A DNA stretch of 38,421 bases from a virus (lineage: Duplodnaviria > Heunggongvirae > Uroviricota > Caudoviricetes). The translations under genes and the position numbers were made by a program. The stretch is from positions 1 through 38,421 of IMG/VR virus record IMGVR_UViG_2703718837_000008. One strand, given 5' to 3'. Shown piece by piece: positions 1 to 18,718 of the stretch (position 1 is its first letter; each line of letters opens with the position of its first letter). The notes beneath the pieces are model-generated. The model had not been told where the DNA came from, searched no databases, and saw only the letters and a list, made by a program, of their open reading frames with translations.

Positions 1-543
1 ATGTCAAAAAATCAGAACGCAAAAATTATTTTTGTTGAAGGTGAAACAGAGTATGCCTTGTTTCAAAAGATGAAGCAAAAAGGTTTGATTAAATTCAAAA
101 AAATTGTCAAGAAGAATTTTTGGGTTGACGATATAAAGAAATATGCAGTTAACATACCTAAAAATTGTGATTTAATAGTTGTTTTTGATAGTGATGTTAT
201 TGATAGGGTTGATAGATTTATTCAGAATGTTAATTACTTAGCAAGCAGAAAACATTCGATTTTTTTATTGCAACAGACCAGAAATTTCGAAGAGGAAATC
301 GCGTATTGCTGCTCTGTAACTTTAAATAAATTGATCGCTTCGTTTTGTAAATGCAAGACATCTGGAGTTGCAGATTTTAAGCGAGATTTTATATCTTCAT
401 CTAATCCTTTTGATAAGCTAGTAGCTTTAGGAATTAACCGGGATAAGTGGTTCAAAAGGGAGTTACATCATTCATTGTTAAGTTTATCAAAGTATAAATC
501 AGATTTTTCAACATATTTTAATGCGGATGTTATTAATTTATGA
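1..543 (+). CDS. Toprim-like (RloB/DUF4276-type) protein, probable defence-associated; complete ORF at window edge
   Basis: 180-aa ORF. N-terminal KIIFVEGETEYALF plus downstream CDLIVVFDSDV acidic motifs resemble the E-G-x-T-E / DxD Toprim signature of RloB- and DUF4276-type proteins that normally pair with an AAA ATPase. Very AT-rich. Lies outside the prophage, beyond the int end. Upstream partner, if any, is outside the window. Confidence 0.4.
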   Translation: MSKNQNAKIIFVEGETEYALFQKMKQKGLIKFKKIVKKNFWVDDIKKYAVNIPKNCDLIVVFDSDVIDRVDRFIQNVNYLASRKHSIFLLQQTRNFEEEIAYCCSVTLNKLIASFCKCKTSGVADFKRDFISSSNPFDKLVALGINRDKWFKRELHHSLLSLSKYKSDFSTYFNADVINL

Positions 544-723
544 TATCTGTGTACTAATGTTATTCGTTACTATGGGAGAATTTCATTGTGCTGATAAGAA
601 ATACAAAGCATAGTAAATCTCCTATTCTCCCGCATAAGTTAAACGACAGTGCAAGTTTAAATTCGAATCATACTATCAGTATACATTCAAGATGGCAATT
701 ATGTTTTTATGGCAAATATCTTA

Positions 724-1842
724 TTAAATAACCAATTTAACCCATTCCTGACCACGAGTATCGTTATAGCGATCGGTGGTTGCCTGGACTTTATGTCCCA
801 GTAATGTTTTTGTATCGATACCCTGCGCACGGTACAGCCGTTCTGACAGGGAGCGTTGTTCATGAAATGTTGGTGGTGTTTTTCCTGCTGGTGGAATTAT
901 TCCAGCCAGGTCCCGTGCTTTGGCAAAGTAATCGCTCAGGTTGTCTTTACTCATTGGTTTTGGTTGTTTCTGGTGCCGACTATGAATCAGGTATGGACTC
1001 AATATTCTGTCCCTGCATCCATTAATCACTTCTTTTAGCGATATCCCAATGGCATCACAGCGTAGCGTAAGCGGTAACGCAAGACGCATTCCAGTTTTTC
1101 CCTGGGTAATATGCAGGTGATCGTTCCACACATCTGAAAAACGCATGTGGCAAATGTCATCACGGCGCTGACCAGTAACAATCGCAAGAAGCATTGCGTT
1201 ACGGATAAAGTGTTTTTCAGGCGTTGCGTTGTAAATTTTTTGCCAGTCTTCCAGAGTGAGCCTGGCTCTGGTTACTTTAGGGATCGGTTTACGGGTAGCC
1301 TCCGGAGGATTCCATCCGGGAGGGACTTCCCCTGCATGCTGTGCTTCTTTATAAATATCAACCCATAATCCGCGATTTACTCTCGCTGTGCTGACCATGT
1401 CTTTATCCAGCCACTCGTCCAGTATTAATGCAAAGTCTCTTACTTCCAGTTCTTTCAATGGGTGGTTTCCCAGACGGGAAACCAGGAATGCAGCCATTCG
1501 CGCTTTTTCTTTGTGGGTTGTAGCTGCAATATCTCCATTTTTCAGTCGCGCGTCCTGTATTTTCAGATATCGATCAACCCATGCCTTTAATCTGATACCC
1601 CGACGTTTTATTGCTGACGGGCTTTCATCAATTTTGCGCATGAAATATTCGGCTTCTGCTGCAGCTATTCGCTGATTGGCTGTGGAAGCGATTCTTTCAG
1701 CTTTGCCTTTGTCTGTTCCGAGTCCGTGAAATTTTCCAGTCACAGGGTTTTTATACTGGTAGTAAACTCTGCCAGTTCTGCGATCAAACTTTTCGTAAAG
1801 ACCGGTTACGTCAGTGCTGTTTTTTCGTGGCCTCGGTGACAT
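724..1842 (-). CDS. int: Tyrosine site-specific integrase (lambda Int family)
   Basis: 372 aa. N-terminal arm-binding region and C-terminal catalytic region align by eye to lambda Int (TGQRxxD...HELRSL...LGH...Y...RG.EW). AAGGAG RBS upstream of the ATG at 1842. Overlaps xis as in lambda. Confidence 0.9.
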   Translation of the reverse strand: MSPRPRKNSTDVTGLYEKFDRRTGRVYYQYKNPVTGKFHGLGTDKGKAERIASTANQRIAAAEAEYFMRKIDESPSAIKRRGIRLKAWVDRYLKIQDARLKNGDIAATTHKEKARMAAFLVSRLGNHPLKELEVRDFALILDEWLDKDMVSTARVNRGLWVDIYKEAQHAGEVPPGWNPPEATRKPIPKVTRARLTLEDWQKIYNATPEKHFIRNAMLLAIVTGQRRDDICHMRFSDVWNDHLHITQGKTGMRLALPLTLRCDAIGISLKEVINGCRDRILSPYLIHSRHQKQPKPMSKDNLSDYFAKARDLAGIIPPAGKTPPTFHEQRSLSERLYRAQGIDTKTLLGHKVQATTDRYNDTRGQEWVKLVI

Positions 1843-2080
1843 GAGTTAAAATCTCCTTCAGTGCATCATCATCGCCAGTATGAATTTCCGGCGCAATTCC
1901 CGTTTCACCAGGTCCAACAAATACTGCCCGGCGATCTATCAGCCAACGCCCACGAATTTTTTGTGGTCTTGGAACGATGTATCCTAGTTTTCCGTATTTC
2001 ACCAGGGTAGTGTTTGTTATTGGGAGACTGAACCGTTTTGGCTTCCACTCATCGAGCGTTATCAGGTACTGTTCGCTCAT
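1811..2080 (-). CDS. xis: Excisionase (Xis)
   Basis: Small basic protein (start taken at internal Met MSEQYLITLDEW...) resembling lambda Xis (YLTLQEW...). Immediately upstream of int with a 32-nt overlap. Start codon choice (2080 vs 2089) is uncertain. Confidence 0.75.
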   Translation of the reverse strand: MSEQYLITLDEWKPKRFSLPITNTTLVKYGKLGYIVPRPQKIRGRWLIDRRAVFVGPGETGIAPEIHTGDDDALKEILTHVTEATKKQH

Positions 2081-2141
2081 GGCTATCACTCCGGAACGCG
2101 CCAGTTGCAGAATACCAACGACAACTGGCGACGGTTGAACA

Positions 2142-4613
2142 TTAAAAATCAGCCTGACTCGGGATCAGTTTTTGCCAGATAGCTGAAACGTATTTTGCCT
2201 GGTAACGAGCGTCATCAAGTGCATTATGGCGCTCACCTTCGAATGGGATAGCAGTTCTGGCATCGAAGTCTATGGCTTTCCCCAGCTCAACGATTGTGCG
2301 TACATCGCGATCGTTGTAGTAACGCCACGGGCAGGGGATCCCCTGCCGTTCGTATGAACGGCGCAAAATCGTGTTGTCGAAGTTGGCTCCATTTCCCCAG
2401 ACCTGAACAAAAAACTCACCGGAGTTTTCGTCGATAAATTCCCGCAATTGCAGTAGTGCATCATCTAACGGGATTTCATCGGTCATAATGGCAGACTGCG
2501 CTTCACGTGATTGCTTTAGCCACCATTTAATGACGTCACGATCAATGACTCCGCCAGCAGTATCCAGATCGATGGTCTTGCTAAATTCCGGTCCCATATC
2601 TCCGGTTTGTGGATCGAAAAATATTGCGCCTATTGAGATAATCGGGGCATCGGGATTTTTTCCCATGGTTTCAAGGTCGATCATCAGATGAATCCCCGCT
2701 CTGCTGGTGGATGTTAGATTATGACGACCGTTCGCCTTAATTAAGGGATCTGACGCCTCGCCAGTTTCGCTATCGCTGGCATGATGCTGATTGCCGCCAG
2801 TGTTCTCCTTGTGCTGATGTGCAGTACCTTCCATTTCCTCCGGATCATTTTCCTGAACTTCAGGCTGATTCTCTTCATCGAATATTTCCTGGTATGTTGC
2901 GTCACCCATCACCGCACCACAATCAGGGCAACTACCGCCGCCGCTCTGACCGCAGGCGGTGCAGGCTTTTTCCGGCTCCTGTTGCGCTACTGGTTCAACC
3001 TGTTTCGTTTCTGGCTCGTTTTGTTGCGCATTTGGGCTGTTTTGTTCCGTTTTCTGGTCGTTCTGTTCCGATTCTTGCTGGTTCTGGTTTACAGAATCGC
3101 GGGTTTCAATCCCCTTCACCCATTTCGGATCATTCGGGTCGCTAATCCCTGCAACAAATTCTCCGCGAGAGGCAGCAAGCAACTTATCGGCGTCAGGCTG
3201 GCTGATATTGGCTGCCTGCATAATTTTGTTTACTTCGTCAGCGGTAACTTTTACCGGCTCTGGTTGTGCGATCGTGTCAGATGCACCAGTATTTTGTTGT
3301 GAACCTGAGTATGTGCCGTTTTTGCGGGCAAAATATTCTTCTTTCGTGATTTCAGTAGCCCCTGCAGCCAGCGCCTTATTCAGACCAGAAAGTTTGTTTG
3401 CACGACCATATTTTTCGCCATCCTTATCGGTGAAAAGGAAGTAGAACGGCCCCTCACGCTCTACAGATGGTTCAGTTTCCAGCGTGCTTTCATTTTTTTG
3501 AGTATCAGATACTTCAGTTTCCACTGCATCAGTTTGTGCTGCTGACGGCTGGAGAATATCAGCAGTGTTCTGGTCTGTTTCTTCATCCTCAAATACGCCC
3601 TTTGTCGCCAGGTATTCAGTGATGTATTTGTTCAGTGCTACGGGATCTTTGTGAATGTCGATCGGACGCTCACGGACAAGGCCAAAAATAGTCTGGCGGT
3701 CGTAGCGAAGGGCATCAGGCTGTTTGCGCATTGATGCCGAGATACGCTTCCAGTCTTCGCGGTCGTTGTCGATAACTTCATTTTTTGCCCAGCGATGGAT
3801 GCTGCCGTCAATGTTTCCGGTATCCACATCACCAGGCCAGAGAGCGTAGGCCAGTTCGTCATCCAGTGTTTTCCATGTCTGCTTGTATTCGCGATGAATG
3901 GCAGCAATGACCTGGCTGATTTTTCCTGTTGAATTTTCAGCGTGCTGTTGATTGGCTCTGGCGCGGGCGAGATCAACAACAGACGTGTATTTTCCGGTTT
4001 CCTTGCGTTCACCTTCGCGACGTTTTTTCCAGATGCGCATCTCTGCCTGAATTTCGGGCCATTTGGCACCAGGCTTACATTTATGCTTAACCCACCCGAT
4101 GGCATGCAGCTTAAGCTCCGGATACATGGCGTTAACTTCTGGCATTTTCATCAACGCTTCAACGATATGTCCGTCGAATGTTGCCATGTCTTCCTGCAAC
4201 AGTTCCTGCGCGCTAATCACCATATCAACGGTGATGTTTTCACATGTGTCGAACTTAACCATGACAGCGTTCTGTACTTCAGGGGCCAGCTTGTCAAAAG
4301 TGACGTTCATCGGATCTGATTCAGTCTCAACCGGGACAAAGGAAGCAGACTCCTCATCCCAGCGGTTTTCCTGCATATATTCAGCATCCCAGGAATCGAG
4401 GGCAGGGCGGGGTATACCGGGTTTATCCTCGCAGACAAGAAATTTATAAGCGCAGTCCTGAGCAGCCGGATATTGCTCCAGGAATTGCCAGGTAAATTTG
4501 GCACGGGCGCGGCGTTCGTCACCGGCTTCAATGGCAGTGGCTACAGCAACTGCACCTTCTTCCTTTATTGCCTGTTCGTCCGGAATGGCGGCGCAAATAA
4601 AGACTTTACTCAT
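2142..4613 (-). CDS. Exodeoxyribonuclease VIII-like protein with C-terminal DEDDh (DnaQ-like) 3'-5' exonuclease domain
   Basis: 823 aa. Central acidic/Gln-rich linker and a segment (KLLAASRGEFVAGISDPNDPKWVKG) that I recall from RecE-like prophage proteins. The C-terminal ~180 aa carries DnaQ-like motifs (MIDLETMG ... H.A..DA). No recT-like partner seen. Confidence 0.6.
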   Translation of the reverse strand: MSKVFICAAIPDEQAIKEEGAVAVATAIEAGDERRARAKFTWQFLEQYPAAQDCAYKFLVCEDKPGIPRPALDSWDAEYMQENRWDEESASFVPVETESDPMNVTFDKLAPEVQNAVMVKFDTCENITVDMVISAQELLQEDMATFDGHIVEALMKMPEVNAMYPELKLHAIGWVKHKCKPGAKWPEIQAEMRIWKKRREGERKETGKYTSVVDLARARANQQHAENSTGKISQVIAAIHREYKQTWKTLDDELAYALWPGDVDTGNIDGSIHRWAKNEVIDNDREDWKRISASMRKQPDALRYDRQTIFGLVRERPIDIHKDPVALNKYITEYLATKGVFEDEETDQNTADILQPSAAQTDAVETEVSDTQKNESTLETEPSVEREGPFYFLFTDKDGEKYGRANKLSGLNKALAAGATEITKEEYFARKNGTYSGSQQNTGASDTIAQPEPVKVTADEVNKIMQAANISQPDADKLLAASRGEFVAGISDPNDPKWVKGIETRDSVNQNQQESEQNDQKTEQNSPNAQQNEPETKQVEPVAQQEPEKACTACGQSGGGSCPDCGAVMGDATYQEIFDEENQPEVQENDPEEMEGTAHQHKENTGGNQHHASDSETGEASDPLIKANGRHNLTSTSRAGIHLMIDLETMGKNPDAPIISIGAIFFDPQTGDMGPEFSKTIDLDTAGGVIDRDVIKWWLKQSREAQSAIMTDEIPLDDALLQLREFIDENSGEFFVQVWGNGANFDNTILRRSYERQGIPCPWRYYNDRDVRTIVELGKAIDFDARTAIPFEGERHNALDDARYQAKYVSAIWQKLIPSQADF

Positions 4614-4692
4614 TTTGTTTTACCTCATTACAGATTTAAGGGTGAACAAATCCCTGCCATTGCTGGCATATAAAAATGAAACTGGATATTAA

Positions 4693-4896
4693 TTACGGCG
4701 CTGTTTTTAATCCTGCCGGGATTTCGTTATTATCCTGGTGAATAACTTTATCGACCGGATAACAGTTACCGGGAATTTTCTGTTCCGCTGCGGCAGCCGT
4801 GCATTCTTTCATTGAACCGTAAATGTCAATAACCAAGTCAACAGGCTCGCCCGTATTAAGAAAAACTGTCAGAGTGAGAGCAATTGCTGTATTCAT
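4693..4896 (-). CDS. Small membrane protein, YdfD-like by position (downstream of dicB)
   Basis: 67 aa from ATG at 4896, which overlaps the dicB stop (ATGA). Hydrophobic N-terminus (MNTAIALTLTVFL). Occupies the same position as ydfD in the K-12 Qin prophage. Confidence 0.45.
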   Translation of the reverse strand: MNTAIALTLTVFLNTGEPVDLVIDIYGSMKECTAAAAEQKIPGNCYPVDKVIHQDNNEIPAGLKTAP

Positions 4897-5081
4897 TGCC
4901 AGCATCCTTTTTGCATCGGGCGTAAACGTGCCAGTATTGAAAGAATGCATATTTTATTTAATAGCTCTCGTTCGTGTTTTCTCTTATTAATGGCATCTTC
5001 AGTAAATGCAGGGTTACTGATTTTGACACCAATTTCAAAACAACCTTCAGACGTATTAACGTTTGGTAATAACGTTTCCAT
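4893..5081 (-). CDS. dicB: Cell division inhibitor DicB
   Basis: 62-aa product METLLPNVNTSEGCFEIGVKISNPAFTEDAINKRKHERELLNKICILSILARLRPMQKGCWQ is near-identical to my recollection of K-12 DicB (62 aa). The ORF track extends it upstream, but the conserved length and the DicF spacing support the internal start at 5081. Confidence 0.85.
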   Translation of the reverse strand: METLLPNVNTSEGCFEIGVKISNPAFTEDAINKRKHERELLNKICILSILARLRPMQKGCWQ

Positions 5082-5250
5082 TATCGCGTCCTCAACAATG
5101 AATTTTGTGATGCGGTGCCTGGTGCCTCCAGGTGACGTTAACCAGTTAACAATTAACGCCGGATACAGAGAATCCACCCGTAACACTGTTTTTAGCTTTA
5201 ACTGTTCCGCGTGCGCTGAGCCGCATTCACCGCATCACAAAATTCACTTT

Positions 5251-5308
5251 AAAAAGGGCGGCAGAGCAGTCGCGGAGTAAAACTGATACCGCCAAACGCC
5301 ACCAGAAA
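5251..5308 (-). ncRNA. dicF: DicF small RNA (ftsZ-targeting sRNA)
   Basis: Minus-strand sequence TTTCTGGTGGCGTTTGGCGGTATCAGTTTTACTCCGCGACTGCTCTGCCGCCCTTTTT matches the K-12 DicF sequence as I recall it (1-2 substitutions), ending in a T-run. Lies ~170 nt upstream of dicB, as in Qin. Ends are approximate. Confidence 0.75.
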
Positions 5309-5577
5309 ATTGATAACAGAGGGCGTTGCAGCGGGGTTGTCACTTAAGCGTATGGTCAACCTGACAACCCGGTGTCCTCAACGGGGAAGGAATAACCCCG
5401 CCATACTTACCGCCGCGCCATTTCGCGGAGTGCCACAACCGGAAGCGCACGGTCGACGAAAATTTAACGACAGGCTATCTATAAACCAGCTACCTCGCCG
5501 TACGCTTTCGCGTTGTGTGCCTGCTTTTAACCACGTCAGGCGAGGTGGTTCCTGTTATTCCCCAACAACAAGAAATT

Positions 5578-5585
5578 TGTATAAT
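5578..5585 (+). promoter_or_regulatory. Extended -10 promoter (TGtTATAAT) for the downstream + strand ORF
   Basis: TG at 5578-5579 followed by TATAAT at 5580-5585. Flanked by two 17-nt direct repeats TCCCCAACAAC(A/G)AGAA at 5559-5575 and 5593-5609. GAGAAGA RBS at 5604-5610 precedes a GTG start at 5620. Confidence 0.4.
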
Positions 5586-5619
5586 CCGGATATCCCCAAC
5601 AACGAGAAGAGTACTCAAC

Positions 5620-6075
5620 GTGATAGCAGAACTGTCAGCGGCTATGGCTGCGATAAAGGAGACAGCTGGTCTCGCTAAGGTTATTAATGACGCAAAAACG
5701 GATGCAGAAGTTAAAGCCGCAACTATTGAACTTCAGAACAAACTAATCACGCTTCAGGCGGAATGCTTCTCTCTTTGCGATGCGATCCGCTTTCGTGATG
5801 AAGAGATAATGCATCTCAAAGCAAAAATTGCAGAGACAGAAGATTTTCAGCGACAGGCGGAAGGTTACAAGCTTAACAAGCTTGATTCTGGAACCCTTGT
5901 ATATTCCAAGAAGCAATTTATAGGCGATACTGAGATAACTGTGCATCTTTGCCCACAATGTTTTGGAAAAAAGGCAATATCTGTACTTCAGCCAATGGAA
6001 ATAATGCGCTTTGATGCTCATTTTCGTACTTTTTGCCCCGCTTGCAATAATAAGTTCTGGATGAACTCAAGATAA
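5620..6075 (+). CDS. Hypothetical protein: N-terminal coiled-coil plus C-terminal C4 zinc ribbon
   Basis: ~152 aa from GTG 5620 (ATG at 5644 is an alternative). Heptad-like N-terminus (AAIKETAGLAKVINDAKTDAEVKAATIELQNKLITLQAE...). C-terminus has CPQC...(22 aa)...CPAC. Convergent to the dicB operon and sits in an insertion relative to the K-12 ydfC-dicF junction. Confidence 0.5.
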   Translation: MIAELSAAMAAIKETAGLAKVINDAKTDAEVKAATIELQNKLITLQAECFSLCDAIRFRDEEIMHLKAKIAETEDFQRQAEGYKLNKLDSGTLVYSKKQFIGDTEITVHLCPQCFGKKAISVLQPMEIMRFDAHFRTFCPACNNKFWMNSR

Positions 6076-6210
6076 TTAACCGTTTAAATAAGTTGGGACT
6101 ATCCAGATTTTTAAAGAACGTACCGGATGCTCACCCGTGTCCGGCGCACGCACTCCACCTCACCCGTGGAGAACTCCTTAATTACCAACCTTAGCTTCGT
6201 TGGTTAGCTA

Positions 6211-6429
6211 TTAACGCGGGTATGTAATCATTCTGGCAATGCTTAATGTCGCTGCTTTTTCCAGCCTGGTGATATCCTGCTCCAGAGCGGACAGATTTTC
6301 AGCCTGCTTAGCCCTGGCTTCATTGGCCCATTTCAGATCCTGCGCTGCATTAATTTTCTGGCGCATCCACTCATAAAGTTCATCATCGGTATAGTCTGGC
6401 GCGATGATGACGGGTTCTCGTTTCTGCAT
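6211..6429 (-). CDS. ydfC: YdfC-like small protein
   Basis: 72 aa, same length and position as Qin ydfC (dicA-ydfA-ydfB-ydfC-dicF-dicB order). Assignment is mainly by synteny. Confidence 0.5.
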   Translation of the reverse strand: MQKREPVIIAPDYTDDELYEWMRQKINAAQDLKWANEARAKQAENLSALEQDITRLEKAATLSIARMITYPR

Positions 6430-6458
6430 ACTGATTCCTCGCGGTGCTGTTTCGCTTA

Positions 6459-6587
6459 TCAGCCGTTAGATTTTGCCGAACTGGAAAGCGCCTGTTTAAA
6501 TTCGCTGAAGCTGAGAGTTTCTTCGCCTTCGGCAAGGCCTTCGAAGTATTCTTCGTAAGCCTTTTTCATGATTGTGTCGAAATCCAT
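6459..6587 (-). CDS. ydfB: YdfB-like small protein (42 aa)
   Basis: Not in the ORF track (below its length cutoff). Reverse-strand ORF MDFDTIMKKAYEEYFEGLAEGEETLSFSEFKQALSSSAKSNG with a GGTGAG RBS; its ATG lies 1 nt after the ydfA stop. Matches the 42-aa ydfB size of Qin. Confidence 0.5.
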   Translation of the reverse strand: MDFDTIMKKAYEEYFEGLAEGEETLSFSEFKQALSSSAKSNG

Positions 6588-6588
6588 A

Positions 6589-6744
6589 TCACTCACCTGA
6601 GTTTCTTTCCAGCCAGCGACGGGCACCATTTTCGGTTTTAAACGTTTTGCTTTTGGTATACGTCATCGCGGTGAACGTGCCGTCCTGGTTGGGAAACACG
6701 CCGTACACCAGAGATTCGTTGTTGCCAAGATCGATAGTATCCAT
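6589..6744 (-). CDS. ydfA: YdfA-like small protein (51 aa)
   Basis: Internal Met start MDTIDLGNNESLVYGVFPNQDGTFTAMTYTKSKTFKTENGARRWLERNSGE with GAGG RBS. 51 aa as in Qin ydfA. First gene downstream of the repressor-controlled promoter. Confidence 0.55.
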   Translation of the reverse strand: MDTIDLGNNESLVYGVFPNQDGTFTAMTYTKSKTFKTENGARRWLERNSGE

Positions 6745-6926
6745 GTTGACCTCATTTCCCCTTAACGCCGGGGTAGCGGAACAAAAACCTGCTGCATAGT
6801 TATTAAAGTTGAACCCTGCCGTCATGTTCTTACGCCTCGGGCTGGCTACTTACCCCCTGACCACTGCCTGGTAACTCGAAGTATTGCCCTGCGTTCTGTG
6901 GGACGGGGTGGGTTGGCATGAAAGAA

Positions 6927-6967
6927 ATGATACCCATGGGTATTCAAAAAGTAAATACCCATGGGTA
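6927..6967 (-). promoter_or_regulatory. Predicted promoter of the ydfABC-dicF-dicB operon with two identical 12-bp palindromic operators
   Basis: Perfect palindrome TACCCATGGGTA at 6931-6942 and again at 6956-6967 (25 bp centre to centre). On the minus strand a TTTACT(-35)-17-TATCAT(-10) promoter (plus coordinates 6950-6955 and 6927-6932) overlaps them. Confidence 0.5.
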
Positions 6968-7009: not shown

Positions 7010-7429
7010 TTATGATGCGTTTTGTGCTTTCTTTTTACGGATTTCTTCGTAGATCATATTGTAATACTGTTTTTTCTCTTCAAGAGTTTTTAATAAGTTA
7101 TCCGCTTCACTTTCAGGCAGTTCGTCTAAGAGATCTAAAAAAATACGTTGTCGTGGCGTTAGAACCCTTGTTTCATAATTGGAGGCTGTGTTCGTTGATG
7201 ATGAAACGATACCATCCATCCATCCCCGGGGTAACCCAAAGGACTCTTCTATAATCTCCACCATATCATCAGCGATCCGTTTTTTTCCTTTTTTCCCCTC
7301 TGGGTACAACATTCTTGATACATAAGAAGGCTCGCGACCGATCTTTCTGGCCACGTTAACCGCTTTACCATCGCATTTCTCATCACGAATTTTGATGAGT
7401 TGTTGTCGTCTAAATTCATATTTGTCCAT
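7010..7429 (-). CDS. DicA/CI-like HTH (XRE family) repressor
   Basis: 139 aa from the internal Met at 7429 (MDKYEFRRQQLIKIRDEK...). HTH segment VNVARKIGREPSYVSRML. C-terminus (LTPRQRIFLDLLDELPESEADNLL...) resembles DicA as I recall it. Divergent from a Cro-like gene. The longer ORF-track start at 7471 would run into the operator region. Confidence 0.7.
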   Translation of the reverse strand: MDKYEFRRQQLIKIRDEKCDGKAVNVARKIGREPSYVSRMLYPEGKKGKKRIADDMVEIIEESFGLPRGWMDGIVSSSTNTASNYETRVLTPRQRIFLDLLDELPESEADNLLKTLEEKKQYYNMIYEEIRKKKAQNAS

Positions 7430-7449: not shown

Positions 7450-7504
7450 TACCGCAAGGTAAACAACCCAAGGGTATTGACTTTTGTTTACCTGTGGGTA
7501 TTCT
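7450..7504. promoter_or_regulatory. Divergent immunity-switch control region: three TACC-N4-GGTA operators and a rightward promoter
   Basis: TACCGCAAGGTA (7450-7461), AACCCAAGGGTA (7465-7476), TACCTGTGGGTA (7489-7500). TTGACT (7477-7482)-16-TATTCT (7499-7504) reads toward the Cro-like gene, with the third operator overlapping the -10. Confidence 0.55.
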
Positions 7505-9833: not shown

Positions 9834-12092
9834 ATGAAACCAGAATACTTAAGAAAAATAGAATCATTGCAACGTGAGGTTGATGATTTCCATCCAGTGC
9901 TAAGAGCGCTTCTACCACGTTTGCCGACTGTTACACATGTTGAATATAAGCAAGGACCATCAGAAAAAGGTGCTGATTTTGTCATAATTAAACGAGATGA
10001 GGCATTAGACGAGGAAATATATATTGGTGTTATTTGTAAAGTTGGAAAGATAATTCAGTCAAATAGTGAGGTTGAACGACAAATAGAAGAGTGTCAATTA
10101 TATCCACGCTTTATTTCTTCTGGCTCTAAGAACATACATTTGAATGAAATTTGGGTTATTACTAATTCATCGATCTCAAATAATGCTCAAGAAAAAATTT
10201 ACTTGAAATTCAAATCTACAAATATAAAATTTATAGAGGGTGAAAAAATATGTTCTTTAATCAGTAAATATTACCCAGAGTTTTGGGATTTCGAATCCAT
10301 TAATTATGAACAATACTTAACAGATACATTGCAAACCATAAGTGATACACCTGAAAGTTCTTTTTTTGGTAGTGTTGGCATAAATAACCTTATTGATAGA
10401 TATGTAAGCAAGGAGGATCATAAAAAACGCAGACACAGGCCGTTAAAACTGTATAGTGTTGTGAGAGCCGAGAGATTTATTTTTTTAGAGGGAACCGTTG
10501 GCTCTGGGAAAAGTACTTTGCTGAAACAGTTAATTAGAAAAATAAAAGAAGAATATTCTTACGAAAAAGACTACATCCTTCCAGTATTTTGTCAATACAA
10601 GGATGTTCTAGAAAAAAAACTTAATGTTGAAAATATAATACAAAGTGTGTTAAGTAAGTACAAAATACAACATGATGGGAATATTTTATTAATTGTTGAT
10701 TCGGTTGATGAAGTAAAGGAATCACTTGAGGAAAGGCAAAACAACTTCAGGGACATTGTAGAGAAAGTATCCAGGAATGATAAAGTTCGATTACTAGTTG
10801 CTTCAAGAATTATGGATTCTCTTCAGGACTATGAAGTTATCGATCAGATGTTTGCAAGATACTCGATAATACCACTTAGCACAGGTCAAATAATCGACTT
10901 TGTAGATAAAATCTGCAATGACATTAAAATAACAAATAAACTTAAAAATGGTATAGAAAAAACACCACTATTTAAGTTCATTCCCAGGACTCCAGTGAGC
11001 GCTATTCTTCTGGCAAGAATACTCTCTGATGAGATTAAAGAATTACCATCTACAATGACAGAACTATACTCAAAATACAGTGAGATAGTATTGGGACGAT
11101 GGGATACATCTAAGGGATTATTATCGCAAACAGAATATGATGTAATAAGTAATATATTAGTAGAAATTGCGATGTTTATGATGGATAACTCTCTAAACTG
11201 CATATCAATTTCAGAAGTGCAGGACATGTTTTTAAATTATTTGGCCAAAAGAAACTTGAATGTTGATGAGGACAAACTTTTCAAAAGACTAATTTATCGC
11301 AGTGAAGTAACAACAGTTAATGTTAGAAGTAATACGTTCTCATTTCTACACAGATCATTCATGGAGTATTTTTACGCTGAAGGACTTAGGAAGCGTGGCC
11401 TAATAGACATAAATGATAATATTTATGATATTTATTGGGCAAATAGTTATTTCTTCTATTTTGGTTTGTTACGAGACAATGAATATCTTATTGATAAAAT
11501 TAATGAACTTAAACCTAGTAACGATAAAACAAGATTTTTAAGGTTGTTTTATAACGGTTCTTTTTATTTGGCTTCATATCTAACTCCGTATAAAAAAATA
11601 ACGAGGGGAGTCCTTTTATCATATATAGATGCAGGTAAATTATATGTTGATATTCTCAAGGGAAATACCGACATCCCGCTGAAGGAATTTTCACCAGTAG
11701 CTCTTCTTTGTATTTTCACAAAGTGTTTAAGTAACAATTACGCATATGATTTTTTCAAATCTGCCTTGGAAGACTTGTCAGTTCAAATTGAACAATATGA
11801 GGAAATTGGTGAACATATTGATTATGCACGTTTCTTCATAGCATCAACACTGAATGAGCTCGGGGATAAATCCGCATTTGATAGCTTAGTGGAAAAAAAT
11901 AAATTAGGTGTTTTGATTAATTTAGGGATAACTCACGTTACAGACGACTCAGGACTACTTAGCACTACGGTTGATAAGTACCTGAAAAAATTCAATAAAA
12001 AAGTACGAAGTAACCATGATATGTCTAATTATATATCTAAGTTATATGAGGAATCTACAGGTTCCTTACGTACAAACCTGCAAATTCAATAA
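9834..12092 (+). CDS. NACHT-type STAND NTPase with N-terminal PD-(D/E)xK-like nuclease domain (bacterial NLR-like antiphage candidate)
   Basis: 752 aa. Walker A FLEGTVGSGKST (aa ~217-228). Walker B with NACHT signature ILLIVDSVDE (aa ~285-293). NACHT winged-helix motif SFLHRSFMEYFYAEG (aa ~502-516). N-terminal GADFVIIK...EIYIGVICK resembles an Mrr-like D...E.K nuclease core. Strongly AT-rich relative to the flanking phage genes, with its own promoter and a 13-bp stem hairpin after the stop. Confidence 0.7.
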   Translation: MKPEYLRKIESLQREVDDFHPVLRALLPRLPTVTHVEYKQGPSEKGADFVIIKRDEALDEEIYIGVICKVGKIIQSNSEVERQIEECQLYPRFISSGSKNIHLNEIWVITNSSISNNAQEKIYLKFKSTNIKFIEGEKICSLISKYYPEFWDFESINYEQYLTDTLQTISDTPESSFFGSVGINNLIDRYVSKEDHKKRRHRPLKLYSVVRAERFIFLEGTVGSGKSTLLKQLIRKIKEEYSYEKDYILPVFCQYKDVLEKKLNVENIIQSVLSKYKIQHDGNILLIVDSVDEVKESLEERQNNFRDIVEKVSRNDKVRLLVASRIMDSLQDYEVIDQMFARYSIIPLSTGQIIDFVDKICNDIKITNKLKNGIEKTPLFKFIPRTPVSAILLARILSDEIKELPSTMTELYSKYSEIVLGRWDTSKGLLSQTEYDVISNILVEIAMFMMDNSLNCISISEVQDMFLNYLAKRNLNVDEDKLFKRLIYRSEVTTVNVRSNTFSFLHRSFMEYFYAEGLRKRGLIDINDNIYDIYWANSYFFYFGLLRDNEYLIDKINELKPSNDKTRFLRLFYNGSFYLASYLTPYKKITRGVLLSYIDAGKLYVDILKGNTDIPLKEFSPVALLCIFTKCLSNNYAYDFFKSALEDLSVQIEQYEEIGEHIDYARFFIASTLNELGDKSAFDSLVEKNKLGVLINLGITHVTDDSGLLSTTVDKYLKKFNKKVRSNHDMSNYISKLYEESTGSLRTNLQIQ

Positions 12093-12550: not shown

Positions 12551-12704
12551 TTTTATATTGGCGAGGTGACGTGAGTTAAGTAGAATTGCTGCGGGTGCTT
12601 GAGGCTATCTGCCTCAGGCATGAACACCAAAGGCAGATAGAGAAAAGCCCCAGTTAACATTACGCGTCCTGCAAGACGCTTAACATTAATCTGAGGCTCA
12701 ATCT

Positions 12705-12917
12705 ATGAACGGCAAATCTAGGTTAGCCTCTTACGTGCCGAAAGGCAAGGAGAAGCAGGCTATGAAGCAGCAAAAGGCGATGTTAATCGCCCTGATCGTC
12801 ATCTGTTTAACCGTCATAGTGACGGCACTGGTAACGAGGAAAGACCTCTGCGAGGTACGAATCCGAACCGGCCAGACGGAGGTCGCTGTCTTCACAGCTT
12901 ACGAACCTGAGGAGTAA
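12705..12917 (+). CDS. mok-like overlapping reading frame (translational coupling frame for hok)
   Basis: 70-aa ORF in the same frame that contains the entire hok ORF, as in hok/mok loci. Confidence 0.4.
   Translation: MNGKSRLASYVPKGKEKQAMKQQKAMLIALIVICLTVIVTALVTRKDLCEVRIRTGQTEVAVFTAYEPEE
12762..12917 (+). CDS. hok: Hok/Gef family type I toxin
   Basis: 51-aa product MKQQKAMLIALIVICLTVIVTALVTRKDLCEVRIRTGQTEVAVFTAYEPEE matches the HokD/RelF sequence as I recall it. Followed by fbi-like 3' complementarity and a terminator. Confidence 0.85.
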   Translation: MKQQKAMLIALIVICLTVIVTALVTRKDLCEVRIRTGQTEVAVFTAYEPEE

Positions 12918-12987
12918 GAGACCAGGCGAGGGAGAAATCCCTCGCCACCTCTGATGAGTCAGGCATCCTCAACGCACCCGCACTTAA

Positions 12988-13012
12988 CCCGCTTCGGCGG
13001 GTTTTGTTTTTT
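12988..13012 (+). terminator. Rho-independent terminator at the 3' end of the hok mRNA
   Basis: CCCGC-TTCG-GCGGG hairpin followed by TTTTGTTTTTT. Confidence 0.7.
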
Positions 13013-15677: not shown

Positions 15678-15753
15678 GGCCCTTTAGCTCAGTGGTGAGA
15701 GCGAGCGACTCATAATCGCCAGGTCGCTGGTTCAAATCCAGCAAGGGCCACCA
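15678..15753 (+). tRNA. tRNA with CAU anticodon, probably tRNA-Ile2 (lysidine type; Met not excluded)
   Basis: 76 nt, manually folded. Acceptor GGCCCTT/AAGGGCC, D-stem GCTC/GAGC, anticodon loop CTCATAA, T-loop TTCAAAT, 3' CCA encoded. Resembles E. coli ileX as I recall it. Confidence 0.8.
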
Positions 15754-15754
15754 A

Positions 15755-15831
15755 CCGCCACTAGCTCATCAGGAAAGAGCGTCAACCCTTTAAGTTGAGT
15801 GTGCGAGGTTCGAGTCCCCGGTGGCGGTCCA
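15755..15831 (+). tRNA. Atypical tRNA-like gene, anticodon UUU by loop position (Lys-like) with C33
   Basis: 77 nt, manually folded. Acceptor CCGCCAC/GTGGCGG, D-stem GCTC/GAGC, perfect anticodon stem TCAAC/GTTGA, loop CCTTTAA, T-loop TTCGAGT with one T-stem mismatch, CCA encoded. C at position 33 and C1 are unusual. Confidence 0.5.
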
Positions 15832-15833
15832 GT

Positions 15834-15909
<76 letters not shown>

Positions 15910-15912
15910 TAT

Positions 15913-15987
<75 letters not shown>

Positions 15988-18235: not shown

Positions 18236-18718
18236 ATGTCTGGACCCCCGAAAAACCCGCCACGCCTGCATTTGATACGAGGCAACCCCTCAAAGCGCCC
18301 CGTTAAAGACCTCAAAAAAACCGCTAAAAAGGATGAAAAAGGTCTCCCTAAAATTCCGCAACATTTAGGGGCACAGGGGAAGTACTGGTTCAGGCGAATG
18401 GCGGAAGAGTTGAATGCGGAAGGGATCATTTCTCAGCTCGATGCACGTGCGCTCGAGTTACTGGTGGAAGCCTACACCGAATACCGGCATCACTGCGAAA
18501 TACTCGATGTTGAGGGTTATACCTACCGCACGGAAACGCAGAATGGCGATGTGCTGATCAAGGCACACCCGGCTGCTGCGATGAAGGCTGATGCCTGGAA
18601 GCGGATCCGGGCGATGCTTGCAGAGTTTGGTATGTCACCGGCAAGCCGGGCGAAAGTAAATACCGCCGGACCGGATGATGTTGATCCGCTGGCAGAGCTT
18701 TTAAAAGCGAGAGACTGA
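18236..18718 (+). CDS. Terminase small subunit (P27-like family)
   Basis: 160 aa. Position and basic N-terminus consistent with P27-family TerS. Stop overlaps the TerL start. Confidence 0.7.
   Translation: MSGPPKNPPRLHLIRGNPSKRPVKDLKKTAKKDEKGLPKIPQHLGAQGKYWFRRMAEELNAEGIISQLDARALELLVEAYTEYRHHCEILDVEGYTYRTETQNGDVLIKAHPAAAMKADAWKRIRAMLAEFGMSPASRAKVNTAGPDDVDPLAELLKARD

Follow-up and report, generated by a model that had tools for sequence, protein, structure and literature searches.

The region studied here is an intact, ordinary copy of the well-known DicF/DicB/YdfD division-blocking cassette. The lambdoid E. coli prophage that carries it looks complete, and the cassette very probably lies midway along its early-left (PL-type) operon. 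The one unusual feature of the cassette appears to be a homologue of a Rip1-type anti-phage gene, reversed within the same operon. The window analysed is the whole 38,421-nt stretch of viral DNA, in which dicF, dicB and the ydfD-like gene were all found on the minus strand where an earlier note on this DNA had placed them. The Rfam and Pfam scores and the alignment to K-12 given below show that the note had named all three correctly.

The dicBF-type cassette has been under study since the late 1980s and, as a DicF/DicB/YdfD module, nothing in the present copy is new. The module is already known because DicF is present in ~3950 of 5426 complete E. coli genomes, because isolated lambdoid phages (mEp460, Tritos and others) carry the DicF/DicB module as well, and because the exact proteins have already been deposited from E. 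coli (all five that were checked, those named DicB, DUF1482 and exonuclease among them). The notions of a host other than E. coli and of an unusually divergent copy were dropped, with those five exact proteins in E. coli deposits. Apart from one insert, gene order and spacing are the same as in K-12, and the structural gene set of the prophage is complete; its small terminase lies at 18236-18718. The analysis establishes which parts are present, that they are intact, how they are ordered and spaced, how selection has acted on them and how widely they occur. The features, by position in the window, are as follows.

724-1842, minus strand: lambda-type tyrosine integrase (Pfam Arm-DNA-bind_1 and Phage_integrase), distal in the operon
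1811-2089, minus strand: excisionase (Pfam Exc), also distal in the operon
2142-4613, minus strand: ydfE-type protein of 823 aa (phrog_2082 over its full length), called 'exo' in the earlier note
4693-4896, minus strand: ydfD-like gene (DUF1482, PF07358), 67 aa, ending ...AGLKTAP
4893-5081, minus strand: dicB, 62 aa (PF05358 and K-12 alignment)
5082-5255, minus strand: dicF-dicB spacer (dicB 5' UTR), 174 nt (coordinates and K-12 comparison)
5256-5308, minus strand: DicF sRNA, 53 nt, with A10G and U37C (RF00039 match and K-12 alignment)
5309-5528, minus strand: DicF precursor leader (95% identity to K-12, indel-free from alignment column 57)
5445-5256, minus strand: putative 190-nt DicF precursor generated by RNase III (K-12 alignment, scheme of PMC10448788)
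5529-6119, unstranded: 591-nt insert replacing 29 nt of K-12 Qin (homology breakpoints)
5559-5611, plus strand: presumed promoter and RBS of the Rip1-like gene (sequence)
5620-6075, plus strand: putative Rip1-family gene, 151 aa from a GTG start, oriented against the dicBF-type operon (profile and structure match)
6211-6429, minus strand: ydfC, 72 aa (70/72 identical to K-12)
6459-6587, minus strand: ydfB, 42 aa (K-12 identity, phrog_2061)
6589-6744, minus strand: ydfA, DUF1391, 51 aa (K-12 identity, phrog_751)
6927-6967, minus strand: predicted early-left promoter, -35 TTTACT, 17-nt spacer, -10 TATCAT (sequence scan)
7010-7429, minus strand: candidate prophage repressor, ~139 aa from the ATG at 7429 (ORF listed to 7471; phrog_5736)

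DicB and the YdfD-like protein

DicB matches Pfam PF05358 from end to end (122.4 bits, cutoff 27, residues 1-62 on profile positions 1-62) and shares 54 of its 62 residues with the K-12 protein, leaving 8 substitutions. When the frame was checked for disruption by alignment to K-12, it proved intact over 62 codons, a length of 62 aa that recurs in 85/85 loci; the exact sequence has been deposited as DicB on 27 contigs. The neighbouring YdfD-like protein scores 70.2 bits against PF07358 (DUF1482; cutoff 25), and phrog_1092 covers its residues 1-63. As the earlier note had described, the gene overlaps the dicB stop, its ATG meeting the dicB TGA as ATGA at 4893-4896. The description of its product as a membrane protein did not hold up, the hydrophobic N-terminal stretch being ~13 residues long and the best 19-residue Kyte-Doolittle window reaching 1.41. 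Compared with the 63-aa YdfD of K-12, the protein carries an extra C-terminal KTAP; this 67-aa variant is seen in 9/83 loci and falls in a cluster of 241 deposited sequences. Terminal changes in K-12 YdfD lower lysis (PMC8835842).

Relative to close relatives, dN/dS is 0.20-0.52 for dicB and 0.17-0.32 for ydfD (about 0.3), and both proteins are under purifying selection. The population sample behind these comparisons came from an alignment-based scan of viral contigs and is biased toward DicB alleles near that of the window, and a peptide-pattern scan of genome contigs that started from a single DicB returned 2 E. albertii loci only, its patterns being allele-specific.

In K-12, DicB exerts a MinC-dependent division block and inhibits ManYZ (PMC6832061), and YdfD inhibits or binds IspG and lyses cells unless division is blocked (PMC8835842). 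The functions cited in the earlier note, DicF acting on ftsZ mRNA and DicB through MinC, agree with the literature (PMC5069750, PMC6832061).

A rare DicF allele and its flanking regions

The search with the Rfam covariance model that the earlier note had proposed as a check placed RF00039 well above threshold (cmscan, 73.5 bits for a gathering score of 48, E 1.6e-14, model positions 1-52 of 52 at 5307-5256). The span of 5251-5308 given earlier is made up of the 53-nt K-12-equivalent RNA (5308-5256) followed by the terminator T-run at 5251-5255. With this E value for DicF and one of 6e-36 for DicB, and with 90-97% nucleotide identity to the K-12 locus over 1.8 kb in which gene order is kept, it is extremely improbable that the resemblance arose by chance and that the DicF and DicB genes are absent.

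Two positions, A10G and U37C, set this DicF apart from that of K-12. The A10G allele is found exactly in 30 of ~3980 records and the A10G+U37C double allele in none of them; an exact-allele search of complete E. coli genomes likewise returned no copy of the double allele. In the covariance-model alignment, the sequence fits the consensus structure. Thermodynamic folding, however, favors a different structure for A10G DicF, in which nt 6-12 pair with nt 46-52 (-17.9 versus -13.7 kcal/mol for the consensus structure). The predicted probability of the canonical hairpin and outer stem drops from 0.99 to 0.00 with A10G, and the predicted accessibility of the 5' seed from 0.91 to 0.50, while the alternative fold is still predicted to close with a hairpin and U-run. 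A10G is thus predicted to sequester the 5' seed of DicF. The duplex with ftsZ predicted by RNAduplex keeps the register of the K-12 allele, ftsZ -29 to +25, at nearly the same energy (-37.1 versus -38.5 kcal/mol). Since the 5' seed would be hidden, the target set may narrow, and this rare allele may act only on ftsZ-type targets, those paired through the 3' region.

DicF is placed between ydfC and dicB within a polycistronic operon. In K-12, it has no promoter of its own and relies on read-through from upstream of ydfA (PMC10448788). The precursor leader is conserved; the 220 nt upstream of dicF are ~95% identical to K-12, which argues that the processing region is retained. A mean pairwise difference of 0.295 computed for the leader was discarded as an artefact of ungapped comparison over indel-bearing loci, and the 5% difference between window and K-12 was used in its place.

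Downstream of DicF, the distance to dicB that had been put at ~170 nt measures 174 nt, the same as in K-12 and in 62/62 loci measured. The spacer differs from K-12 at 3.4% of positions, as against ~19% at dicB synonymous sites; the K-12 spacer holds an RNase III site that gives a 72-nt form of DicF. Rfam STnc100 gave a full-length, sub-threshold match at 5049-5258 (36.1 bits versus 47, E 1.7e-5). Low-scoring Rfam matches to mir-2041 (which is the operator palindrome described below), tsr32 and SNORD103 are spurious.

The upstream operon and its presumed control

At 6120-6782, which holds ydfABC, nucleotide identity to K-12 is 97.3%. Two exact copies of a 12-bp palindrome, TACCCATGGGTA, bracket the early-left promoter at 6956-6967 and 6931-6942; between the repressor and cro-like genes are degenerate versions (7465-7476 and 7489-7500), each 2 mismatches away from it. 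We presume that the exact TACCCATGGGTA copies are OL-type operators of the phage's own repressor and that the promoter plays the role of dicBp. The control region is not of the DicA type, because homology to K-12 begins only at 6782. The repressor candidate matches phrog_5736 'transcriptional regulator' with E 6.7e-70 (residues 15-153 of the listed ORF) and K-12 dicA only weakly (33% over 46 aa). The operon would therefore be controlled by this repressor, in the role that DicA has in Qin, and not by DicA itself.

A putative Rip1-like gene in the ydfC-dicF spacer

Of 5426 complete E. coli genomes, 79 (about 1.5%) carry the insert. More generally, the gap between ydfC and dicF falls into classes of 338-341, 901-902, 930 and 974 nt whose contents differ; extra genes recur at this site. 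A consensus scan found no minus-strand sigma-70 promoter inside or just downstream of the insert, so there is no sign that dicF gains a new promoter from it.

Several lines of evidence point to the insert gene as a member of the Rip1 family. Its product matches PDB 9oox_L, 'ring interacting pore 1', in a profile search (E 9.1e-21) and as a single sequence (phmmer, E 2.1e-11, residues 5-146 versus 15-155). By BLASTP, it is 31% identical to HkaP of HK630 (E 4e-20), and identity to the characterised HK446 and HK630 Rip1/HkaP proteins is 25-31%. An AlphaFold2 model (pLDDT 89.9) has a helical N-terminal half (residues 2-80) followed by a beta/zinc-ribbon-like half; in Foldseek, 9oox_L/M were the sole PDB matches with E<=0.001 (probability 1.00, TM 0.64/0.74). 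Four cysteines of the C-terminal half, C111, C114, C139 and C142, are invariant in an alignment of 46 homologues. Within the predicted helix 2-80, the highest 18-residue hydrophobic moment is 0.34, at residues 7-30. The gene is assigned to phrog_1244, a separate enterobacterial subfamily. Other labels for the insert ORF, namely Pfam DUF641 (below cutoff), PADLOC typeIV_DinG (E 0.019) and the JGI 'predicted nuclease with TOPRIM domain', were set aside as spurious coiled-coil matches. The lack of a Rip1 match in PADLOC would be explained by its 2023 release, which appears older than Rip1 (PDB entry 2026).

The Rip1-like gene presumably has its own promoter and RBS. A perfect -10 TATAAT at 5580-5585 is flanked by the direct repeats TCCCCAACAAC (5559-5569 and 5593-5603), and an RBS-like GAGAAGAG follows at 5604-5611. 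Across the 85 nt that precede its start, the sequence is near-invariant in 5 carriers whose coding regions differ by ~13%. The promoter scan missed this promoter because it has no good -35. A terminator scan and inspection of the sequence found no canonical intrinsic terminator after the stop codon.

According to the summary of Patel et al. 2026 in the review PMC13434031, oligomeric rings of small terminase or portal activate Rip1, which assembles into a 12-mer pore and protects against phage. By homology, the Rip1-like gene would be a separate defence gene expressed in the lysogen. If its promoter is active there, as we presume, transcription into ydfC-ydfB-ydfA could lock the DicF/DicB/YdfD cassette. 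This extra lock would act by transcriptional interference or through sense/antisense duplexes cut by RNase III, and would open only once full induction overwhelms it. It is unlikely, in our estimate, that the copy is a dicBF variant of this kind, differently regulated through the antisense lock and differently targeted through masking of the seed by A10G.

Several observations run against our main reading. The operon transcript has to cross 591 nt, with a convergent gene and its presumed promoter, before it reaches dicF, and no N-type antiterminator was noticed in searches aimed at other features. The refolding predicted for A10G, the absence of the double DicF allele from complete genomes, the four added C-terminal residues of YdfD and the low identity of the Rip1-like protein to the characterised proteins weigh in the same direction.

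The insert also bears on the possibility that the module in this copy is a passenger, silent or decaying. The insert and its convergent transcription would then halt the early-left transcript short of dicF, A10G would misfold DicF, and the genes would look intact only through recent acquisition. Such a state would fit the position of the insert, in the path of the read-through from upstream of ydfA on which K-12 DicF depends (PMC10448788), and the rarity and predicted refolding of the A10G allele. We nevertheless regard it as quite unlikely. The xis and int genes lie downstream on the same strand of an otherwise complete prophage, so that read-through would be needed for excision, and a convergent gene is likewise placed upstream of the recombination genes in HK630, a phage that forms plaques. 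All insert carriers, moreover, retain dicF, a dicB of 62 codons and the 174-nt spacer between them, with dN/dS against close relatives <1, and the alternative DicF fold is predicted to end in a hairpin and U-run with the ftsZ duplex unchanged.

The same evidence qualifies the argument of the earlier note that retention of the module speaks for its function. That argument gains from a dN/dS of about 0.3 and from the invariant 62-codon dicB and 174-nt spacer (62-85 loci); it loses from the 591-nt insert with its convergent gene between promoter and dicF and from the refolding predicted for A10G. The insert and the rare DicF allele raise testable questions on how toxic prophage cassettes are quieted and on natural variation in sRNA targeting.

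Distal genes and the relation to Qin

The 'exo' of the earlier note had been taken as lambda-type. Pfam instead places an Rv2179c-like 3'-5' exoribonuclease domain at its C terminus (residues 642-813, 221.6 bits), and neither a lambda Exo nor a YqaJ domain was found in the 823-aa protein, for which Pfam at E<=0.01 gave only the Rv2179c-like domain and a weak RNase_T. The protein is a full-length ydfE, its first 256 aa being 96% identical to K-12 Qin ydfE, and so displays the intact form of a gene that IS2 has truncated in K-12. It comes after the module in 80/85 loci.

Window positions 3847-5528 match Qin at 92.8%, up to the IS2E truncation point of ydfE, and the hokD/sok, ydfU and holin regions of the window match Qin as well. 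Together with the contiguity of ydfABC and ydfE, these matches contradict the previous view that the backbone is not Qin-type, and the mosaic argument is not supported in the form given. In comparison with K-12 Qin, the integrase showed no similarity to intQ. The real differences from Qin are confined to int/xis and to repressor and operators, a kind of modular variation that is usual among lambdoid phages.

Proposed mode of action

What follows is inferred for this copy, from expression and RNA processing to operator function and the activity of each product. The minus strand would be read in the order repressor-controlled promoter, ydfA-ydfB-ydfC, the convergent Rip1-like gene, DicF precursor, DicF, spacer, dicB, ydfD, exonuclease, xis and int. 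With the phage repressor on the two TACCCATGGGTA operators, the operon would be off; induction or stochastic derepression would yield a polycistronic RNA, from which RNase III and RNase E would excise DicF. DicF would pair with the ribosome-binding region of ftsZ, as well as with other K-12 targets, and reduce FtsZ synthesis. DicB would bind MinC, with the effect that Z-ring formation is blocked, ManYZ inhibited and ManYZ-entering phages excluded. YdfD would inhibit IspG and cause lysis unless division is blocked. Through these actions, the cassette would fill the role that Kil has in lambda's PL operon. The Rip1-like protein, by homology, would detect a superinfecting phage by its small-terminase or portal ring and open a pore in the membrane.

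Several of these activities would also suit a cassette kept mainly for superinfection defence, and not for division control in the phage's own lytic cycle, with DicF and YdfD as accessories. Low-level or stochastic DicB would then exclude ManYZ-dependent phages, and the Rip1-like protein would abort infections on ring recognition. K-12 DicB indeed confers ~100-fold lambda resistance through ManYZ in a MinC-dependent manner (PMC6832061), and dicBp is described as firing spontaneously in a subpopulation of cells. A Rip1 homologue is inserted in the operon, within a recurrent gene slot, and the same prophage has a NACHT-type gene, hok/sok and a weak AbiL-like gene. This explanation is compatible with the main one; however, DicB and the Rip1-like protein are not one unit, because they are encoded on opposite strands under different promoters, and the slot holds no defence gene in most dicBF copies (30 of the 39 loci with a measurable gap). 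We rate defence as the principal role as possible but somewhat doubtful, and keep to the reading of an early-left operon cassette made on induction.

Comparison with known systems

The closest counterpart is the dicBF operon of K-12 Qin, which has the same genes in the same order (ydfABC-dicF-dicB-ydfD-ydfE), the same 174-nt spacer and the same ATGA overlap of dicB and ydfD. In Qin, however, ydfE is truncated by IS2E, whereas it is intact here, at 823 aa. Qin also lacks the 591-nt insert with its convergent Rip1-like gene, and its promoter/operator and repressor (dicBp/DicA/DicC) are unrelated to those of the window. The products differ as well: YdfD has 63 aa in Qin and 67 aa here, DicB carries 8 substitutions here and DicF the A10G and U37C changes. 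Finally, Qin is cryptic, while the prophage described here appears complete and has a lambda-type integrase.

Other lambdoid carriers of dicBF, from pathogenic as well as commensal E. coli, include CP-933M/O/P and the Sakai Sp prophages, PPompW, mEp460 and Tritos. As here, their genomes are of the inducible type and have the module upstream of the 823-aa exonuclease, xis and int, a layout shared with H1 (which adjoins ompW) and GB089 (which adjoins potC). They differ in that the exact DicF allele of the window occurs in no complete genome and the insert is rare. Multiple contexts and copies of dicBF in E. coli have been described before (PMC5069750).

For the Rip1-like gene, the reference structure is 9oox, the Rip1 of phage HK446 bound to the T6 small terminase. 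Rip1 is likewise a single small prophage protein (~150-165 aa) with a long N-terminal helix and a beta-rich C-terminal half, and homology extends over nearly the full length. HkaP of HK630 is also encoded in an early-left operon on the opposite strand, a Rip1-family gene of PhiR29_2 occupies the same position, and the gene context is matched in a Citrobacter prophage. The Pseudomonas Rip1 prototype, according to PMC13434031, lies between terminase genes, unlike the early-left position here.

Lambda Kil offers a functional parallel. It is likewise a small division inhibitor of a delayed-early leftward operon, made on induction, yet it has no sequence relationship to the DicF/DicB/YdfD module. 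Kil targets FtsZ by way of ZipA; DicB works via MinC and DicF on ftsZ mRNA.

Identification and prevalence of the dicBF module

Covariance-model, Pfam and K-12 comparisons agree on the coordinates of DicF, dicB and the YdfD-like gene, all of which an earlier note had placed correctly from the sequence alone.

Features of the dicBF operon region in the window
6955-6927, minus: promoter-like site with -35 TTTACT, a 17-nt spacer and -10 TATCAT
5620-6075, plus: Rip1-like gene of 151 aa with a GTG start, convergent with the operon
5308-5256, minus: K-12-equivalent 53-nt DicF RNA, followed directly by the terminator T-run (5251-5255)
5307-5256, minus: match to DicF (RF00039) over the whole model, cmscan score 73.5 bits (gathering score 48; E 1.6e-14)
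4893-5081, minus: dicB, 62 uninterrupted codons, Pfam DicB 122.4 bits against a cutoff of 27
4693-4896, minus: DUF1482/YdfD-family gene of 67 aa, 70.2 bits against a cutoff of 25

DicB shares 54 of its 62 residues with the K-12 protein, the 174 nt between DicF and dicB (5082-5255) have the same length as in K-12, and the ATG of the ydfD-like gene overlaps the dicB TGA as ATGA. The module is real and was correctly identified, yet it is already known. Of 5426 complete E. coli genomes, 3954 held the locus when searched with a 90-nt DicF query, at up to six copies per genome; the wider 2.1-kb region had matches in 4767 genomes. An exact look-up returned the DicB, YdfD-like, exonuclease, integrase and insert-ORF proteins, deposited under those names for E. 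coli. The module also occurs in lambdoid phages that have been isolated, mEp460 and Tritos among them, all three features being annotated in Tritos (including 'DicF antisense sRNA, inhibits ftsZ'), and dicBF was described in 2016 in many prophage contexts, with multiple copies in O157:H7 (PMC5069750). Modest novelty would lie only in the insertion of a Rip1-family gene into the operon and in a DicF allele predicted to mask its seed.

That retention of the module implies function, as the earlier note had argued, is supported at the level of the family. We compared 85 loci (the window, K-12, strain Z0117EC0133, two E. albertii loci and 80 IMG/VR prophage contigs), a sample skewed to DicB alleles near that of the window, in which dicB had 62 codons throughout (85/85), the DicF-dicB spacer measured 174 nt in all 62 loci holding both genes, and an exonuclease gene came next after the module in 80. 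Nei-Gojobori comparison of the window with other alleles gave dN/dS values of 0.20-0.52 for dicB (pooled 0.33) and 0.17-0.32 for ydfD (pooled 0.29). Between the window and K-12, 3.4% of spacer positions differ, compared with ~19% of dicB synonymous sites. Moreover, the spacer and dicB start (5049-5258, minus) match Rfam STnc100 over its full length, albeit below the threshold (36.1 bits vs 47, E 1.7e-5), suggesting that the spacer RNA itself is constrained.

A Qin-type neighborhood with a different, putative control region

The earlier note had further regarded the module as fused to an arm of lambda-type int, xis and exo genes in place of the backbone of Qin, the cryptic prophage of K-12, and the phage as a mosaic on that account. 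This was mistaken: the 823-aa 'exo' is of the ydfE type. It carries an Rv2179c-like 3'-5' exoribonuclease domain (residues 642-813), a Pfam search found no lambda-Exo domain in it, and its residues 1-256 share 96% identity with the K-12 ydfE pseudogene. At the nucleotide level, the match to Qin is unbroken from window position 5528 to 3847 (92.8%) and ends at the exact point where IS2E cuts K-12 ydfE. Together with further Qin matches in ydfABC (97.3%), hokD/sok (98%), ydfU (83%) and the holin region, this places the module in its native neighborhood. The window holds ydfE in the intact form that K-12 lost. What does differ from Qin is the immunity region and the integrase/excisionase pair, which lacks a match to intQ; in the integrase, the Arm-binding and catalytic domains are those of lambda, and the xis belongs to the Exc type.

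K-12 homology starts at 6782, just 38 nt upstream of ydfA. The early-left promoter-like site beyond it is bracketed by two exact 12-bp palindromes, TACCCATGGGTA (6931-6967), and two further copies with two mismatches each lie at 7465-7500, between a divergent repressor candidate (~139 aa, phrog_5736) and a cro-like gene. This is an OL/OR-type layout, in which the palindromes presumably serve as operators of an immunity type with no relation to DicA. We infer that the phage's own repressor, not DicA, keeps the operon off; the operon is the equivalent of the lambda PL operon. With a replication initiator, Q-like antiterminator, both terminase subunits, portal, major head protein, tape measure and J all present, the prophage is probably not cryptic.

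The ydfA frame stays open for 27 codons further upstream, to an ATG at 6825 (6589-6825, minus), and the YdfA PHROG profile is longer at the N-terminus by ~19 positions; ydfA may thus have another start besides the annotated one, which gives 51 aa.

Several other loci were noted in the window. A hok/sok type I toxin-antitoxin system (12593-12917, plus) comprises sok (RF01794, 111.7 bits) and a Hok/Gef-family ORF, 12748-13011 being 98% identical to K-12 hokD. In the replication region, a 752-aa protein (9834-12092, plus) looks like a bacterial NLR/STAND-type defense gene product: NACHT scores 37.8 bits and NACHT C-terminal helical domain 1 scores 133 bits, the N-terminus weakly matches an Mrr-like nuclease, and the protein falls into no PHROG family at 1e-10. 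Four tRNA genes (15678-15987, plus; Met-CAT, Lys-TTT, Thr-TGT, Gly-TCC) separate the Q-like antiterminator from the lysis genes. Left of the integrase, positions 1-720 (plus) are present in only nine complete E. coli genomes, annotated there as a hypothetical protein and an ATP-binding/AAA protein; a 180-aa ORF within gives a weak AbiLii match (E 5e-4), and the segment may be AbiL-like cargo or an island, not core chromosome.

Predicted expression of DicF across an insert

In the best-supported account, loss of repression would yield an early-left transcript with three products. DicF would repress ftsZ translation, while DicB would redirect MinC to block the Z-ring and, also through MinC, inhibit ManYZ (PMC6832061). 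YdfD would inhibit IspG and cause lysis, an effect countered by DicB (PMC8835842).

The earlier description of the module holds as far as its coordinates go, but missed an insert of 591 nt (5529-6119), which takes the place of 29 nt in K-12, between ydfC and the leader of the DicF precursor, and widens the interval between ydfC and dicF from 340 to 902 nt. Only 79 of the 5426 complete E. coli genomes carry it. Two other prophage contigs (L014 and L032) have different, sense-strand ORFs (MEFKDLP..., 106 and 135 aa) ~20 nt past ydfC, representing gap classes of 930 and 974 nt. The ydfC-dicF spacer thus emerges as a variable, recurrent slot for additional genes.

In K-12, no dedicated promoter drives DicF, which is cut from a transcript starting upstream of ydfA, RNase III generating a 190-nt and RNase E the 53-nt species (PMC10448788). 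In the window, such a transcript must cross the insert. Read-through to dicF is likely, given that the downstream leader (5309-5528) retains ~95% identity with K-12 and no indels across the processing region, that dicF, spacer and dicB are intact in all insert carriers, that xis and int follow further downstream on the same strand, and that phage HK630 tolerates the same convergent geometry. By alignment to K-12, the 190-nt precursor would span 5445-5256.

Two substitutions, A10G and U37C, set the DicF of the window apart from the K-12 RNA; they fall at less conserved (lower-case) positions of the Rfam consensus. Its pairing with the initiation region of ftsZ is predicted to be unchanged, in the same register at -37.1 kcal/mol (K-12, -38.5). 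On its own, A10G is predicted to pair nt 6-12, in the 5' seed, with nt 46-52 of the 3' terminator strand, lowering the canonical stem probability from 0.99 to 0.00 and 5' seed accessibility from 0.91 to 0.50. In K-12, this seed pairs with xylR mRNA (PMC5069750). The refolding is a thermodynamic prediction, which Hfq or co-transcriptional folding could override. The A10G-only allele is rare and natural, occurring exactly in 30 of ~3980 E. coli records, including E24377A; the double allele was absent from the 5426 complete E. coli genomes searched.

A Rip1-like gene inside the operon

The start of the insert gene is confirmed by the N-terminus MIAELSAAM, conserved across 46 homologues. At 35 nt upstream of it lies a perfect TATAAT, the presumed -10 box (5580-5585). 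Direct repeats TCCCCAACAAC on either side (5559-5569 and 5593-5603, plus) could be a regulator binding site. This upstream region is near-invariant, even in variants with ~13% diverged coding sequence.

Pfam and PADLOC returned nothing meaningful for the protein, and PHROGs placed it only in phrog_1244, a family of unknown function. The family profile, however, matched chain L of PDB 9oox, 'ring interacting pore 1 (Rip1)', with E 9.1e-21, as did the single sequence over nearly its full length (E 2.1e-11). An AlphaFold2 model (pLDDT 89.9) had as its sole significant PDB neighbours the two Rip1 chains of 9oox (probability 1.00, TM 0.64/0.74). A 2026 review (PMC13434031) describes Rip1 as a prophage-encoded single-protein defense, harmless alone, whose 12-mer assembles around the 11-mer small-terminase ring of an infecting phage, or its portal, forming a pore in the membrane that brings about premature cell death. 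On the best-supported reading, the insert gene would be an independent defense gene, expressed in the lysogen.

Its position has parallels in other prophages and phages. In HK630, the family member HkaP lies between cIII/kil and N, while in PhiR29_2 and a Citrobacter prophage the family members lie beside cI; all are located, as in the window, on the opposite strand inside the early-left operon. This shared antisense placement argues that the arrangement seen here is typical for this class of gene.
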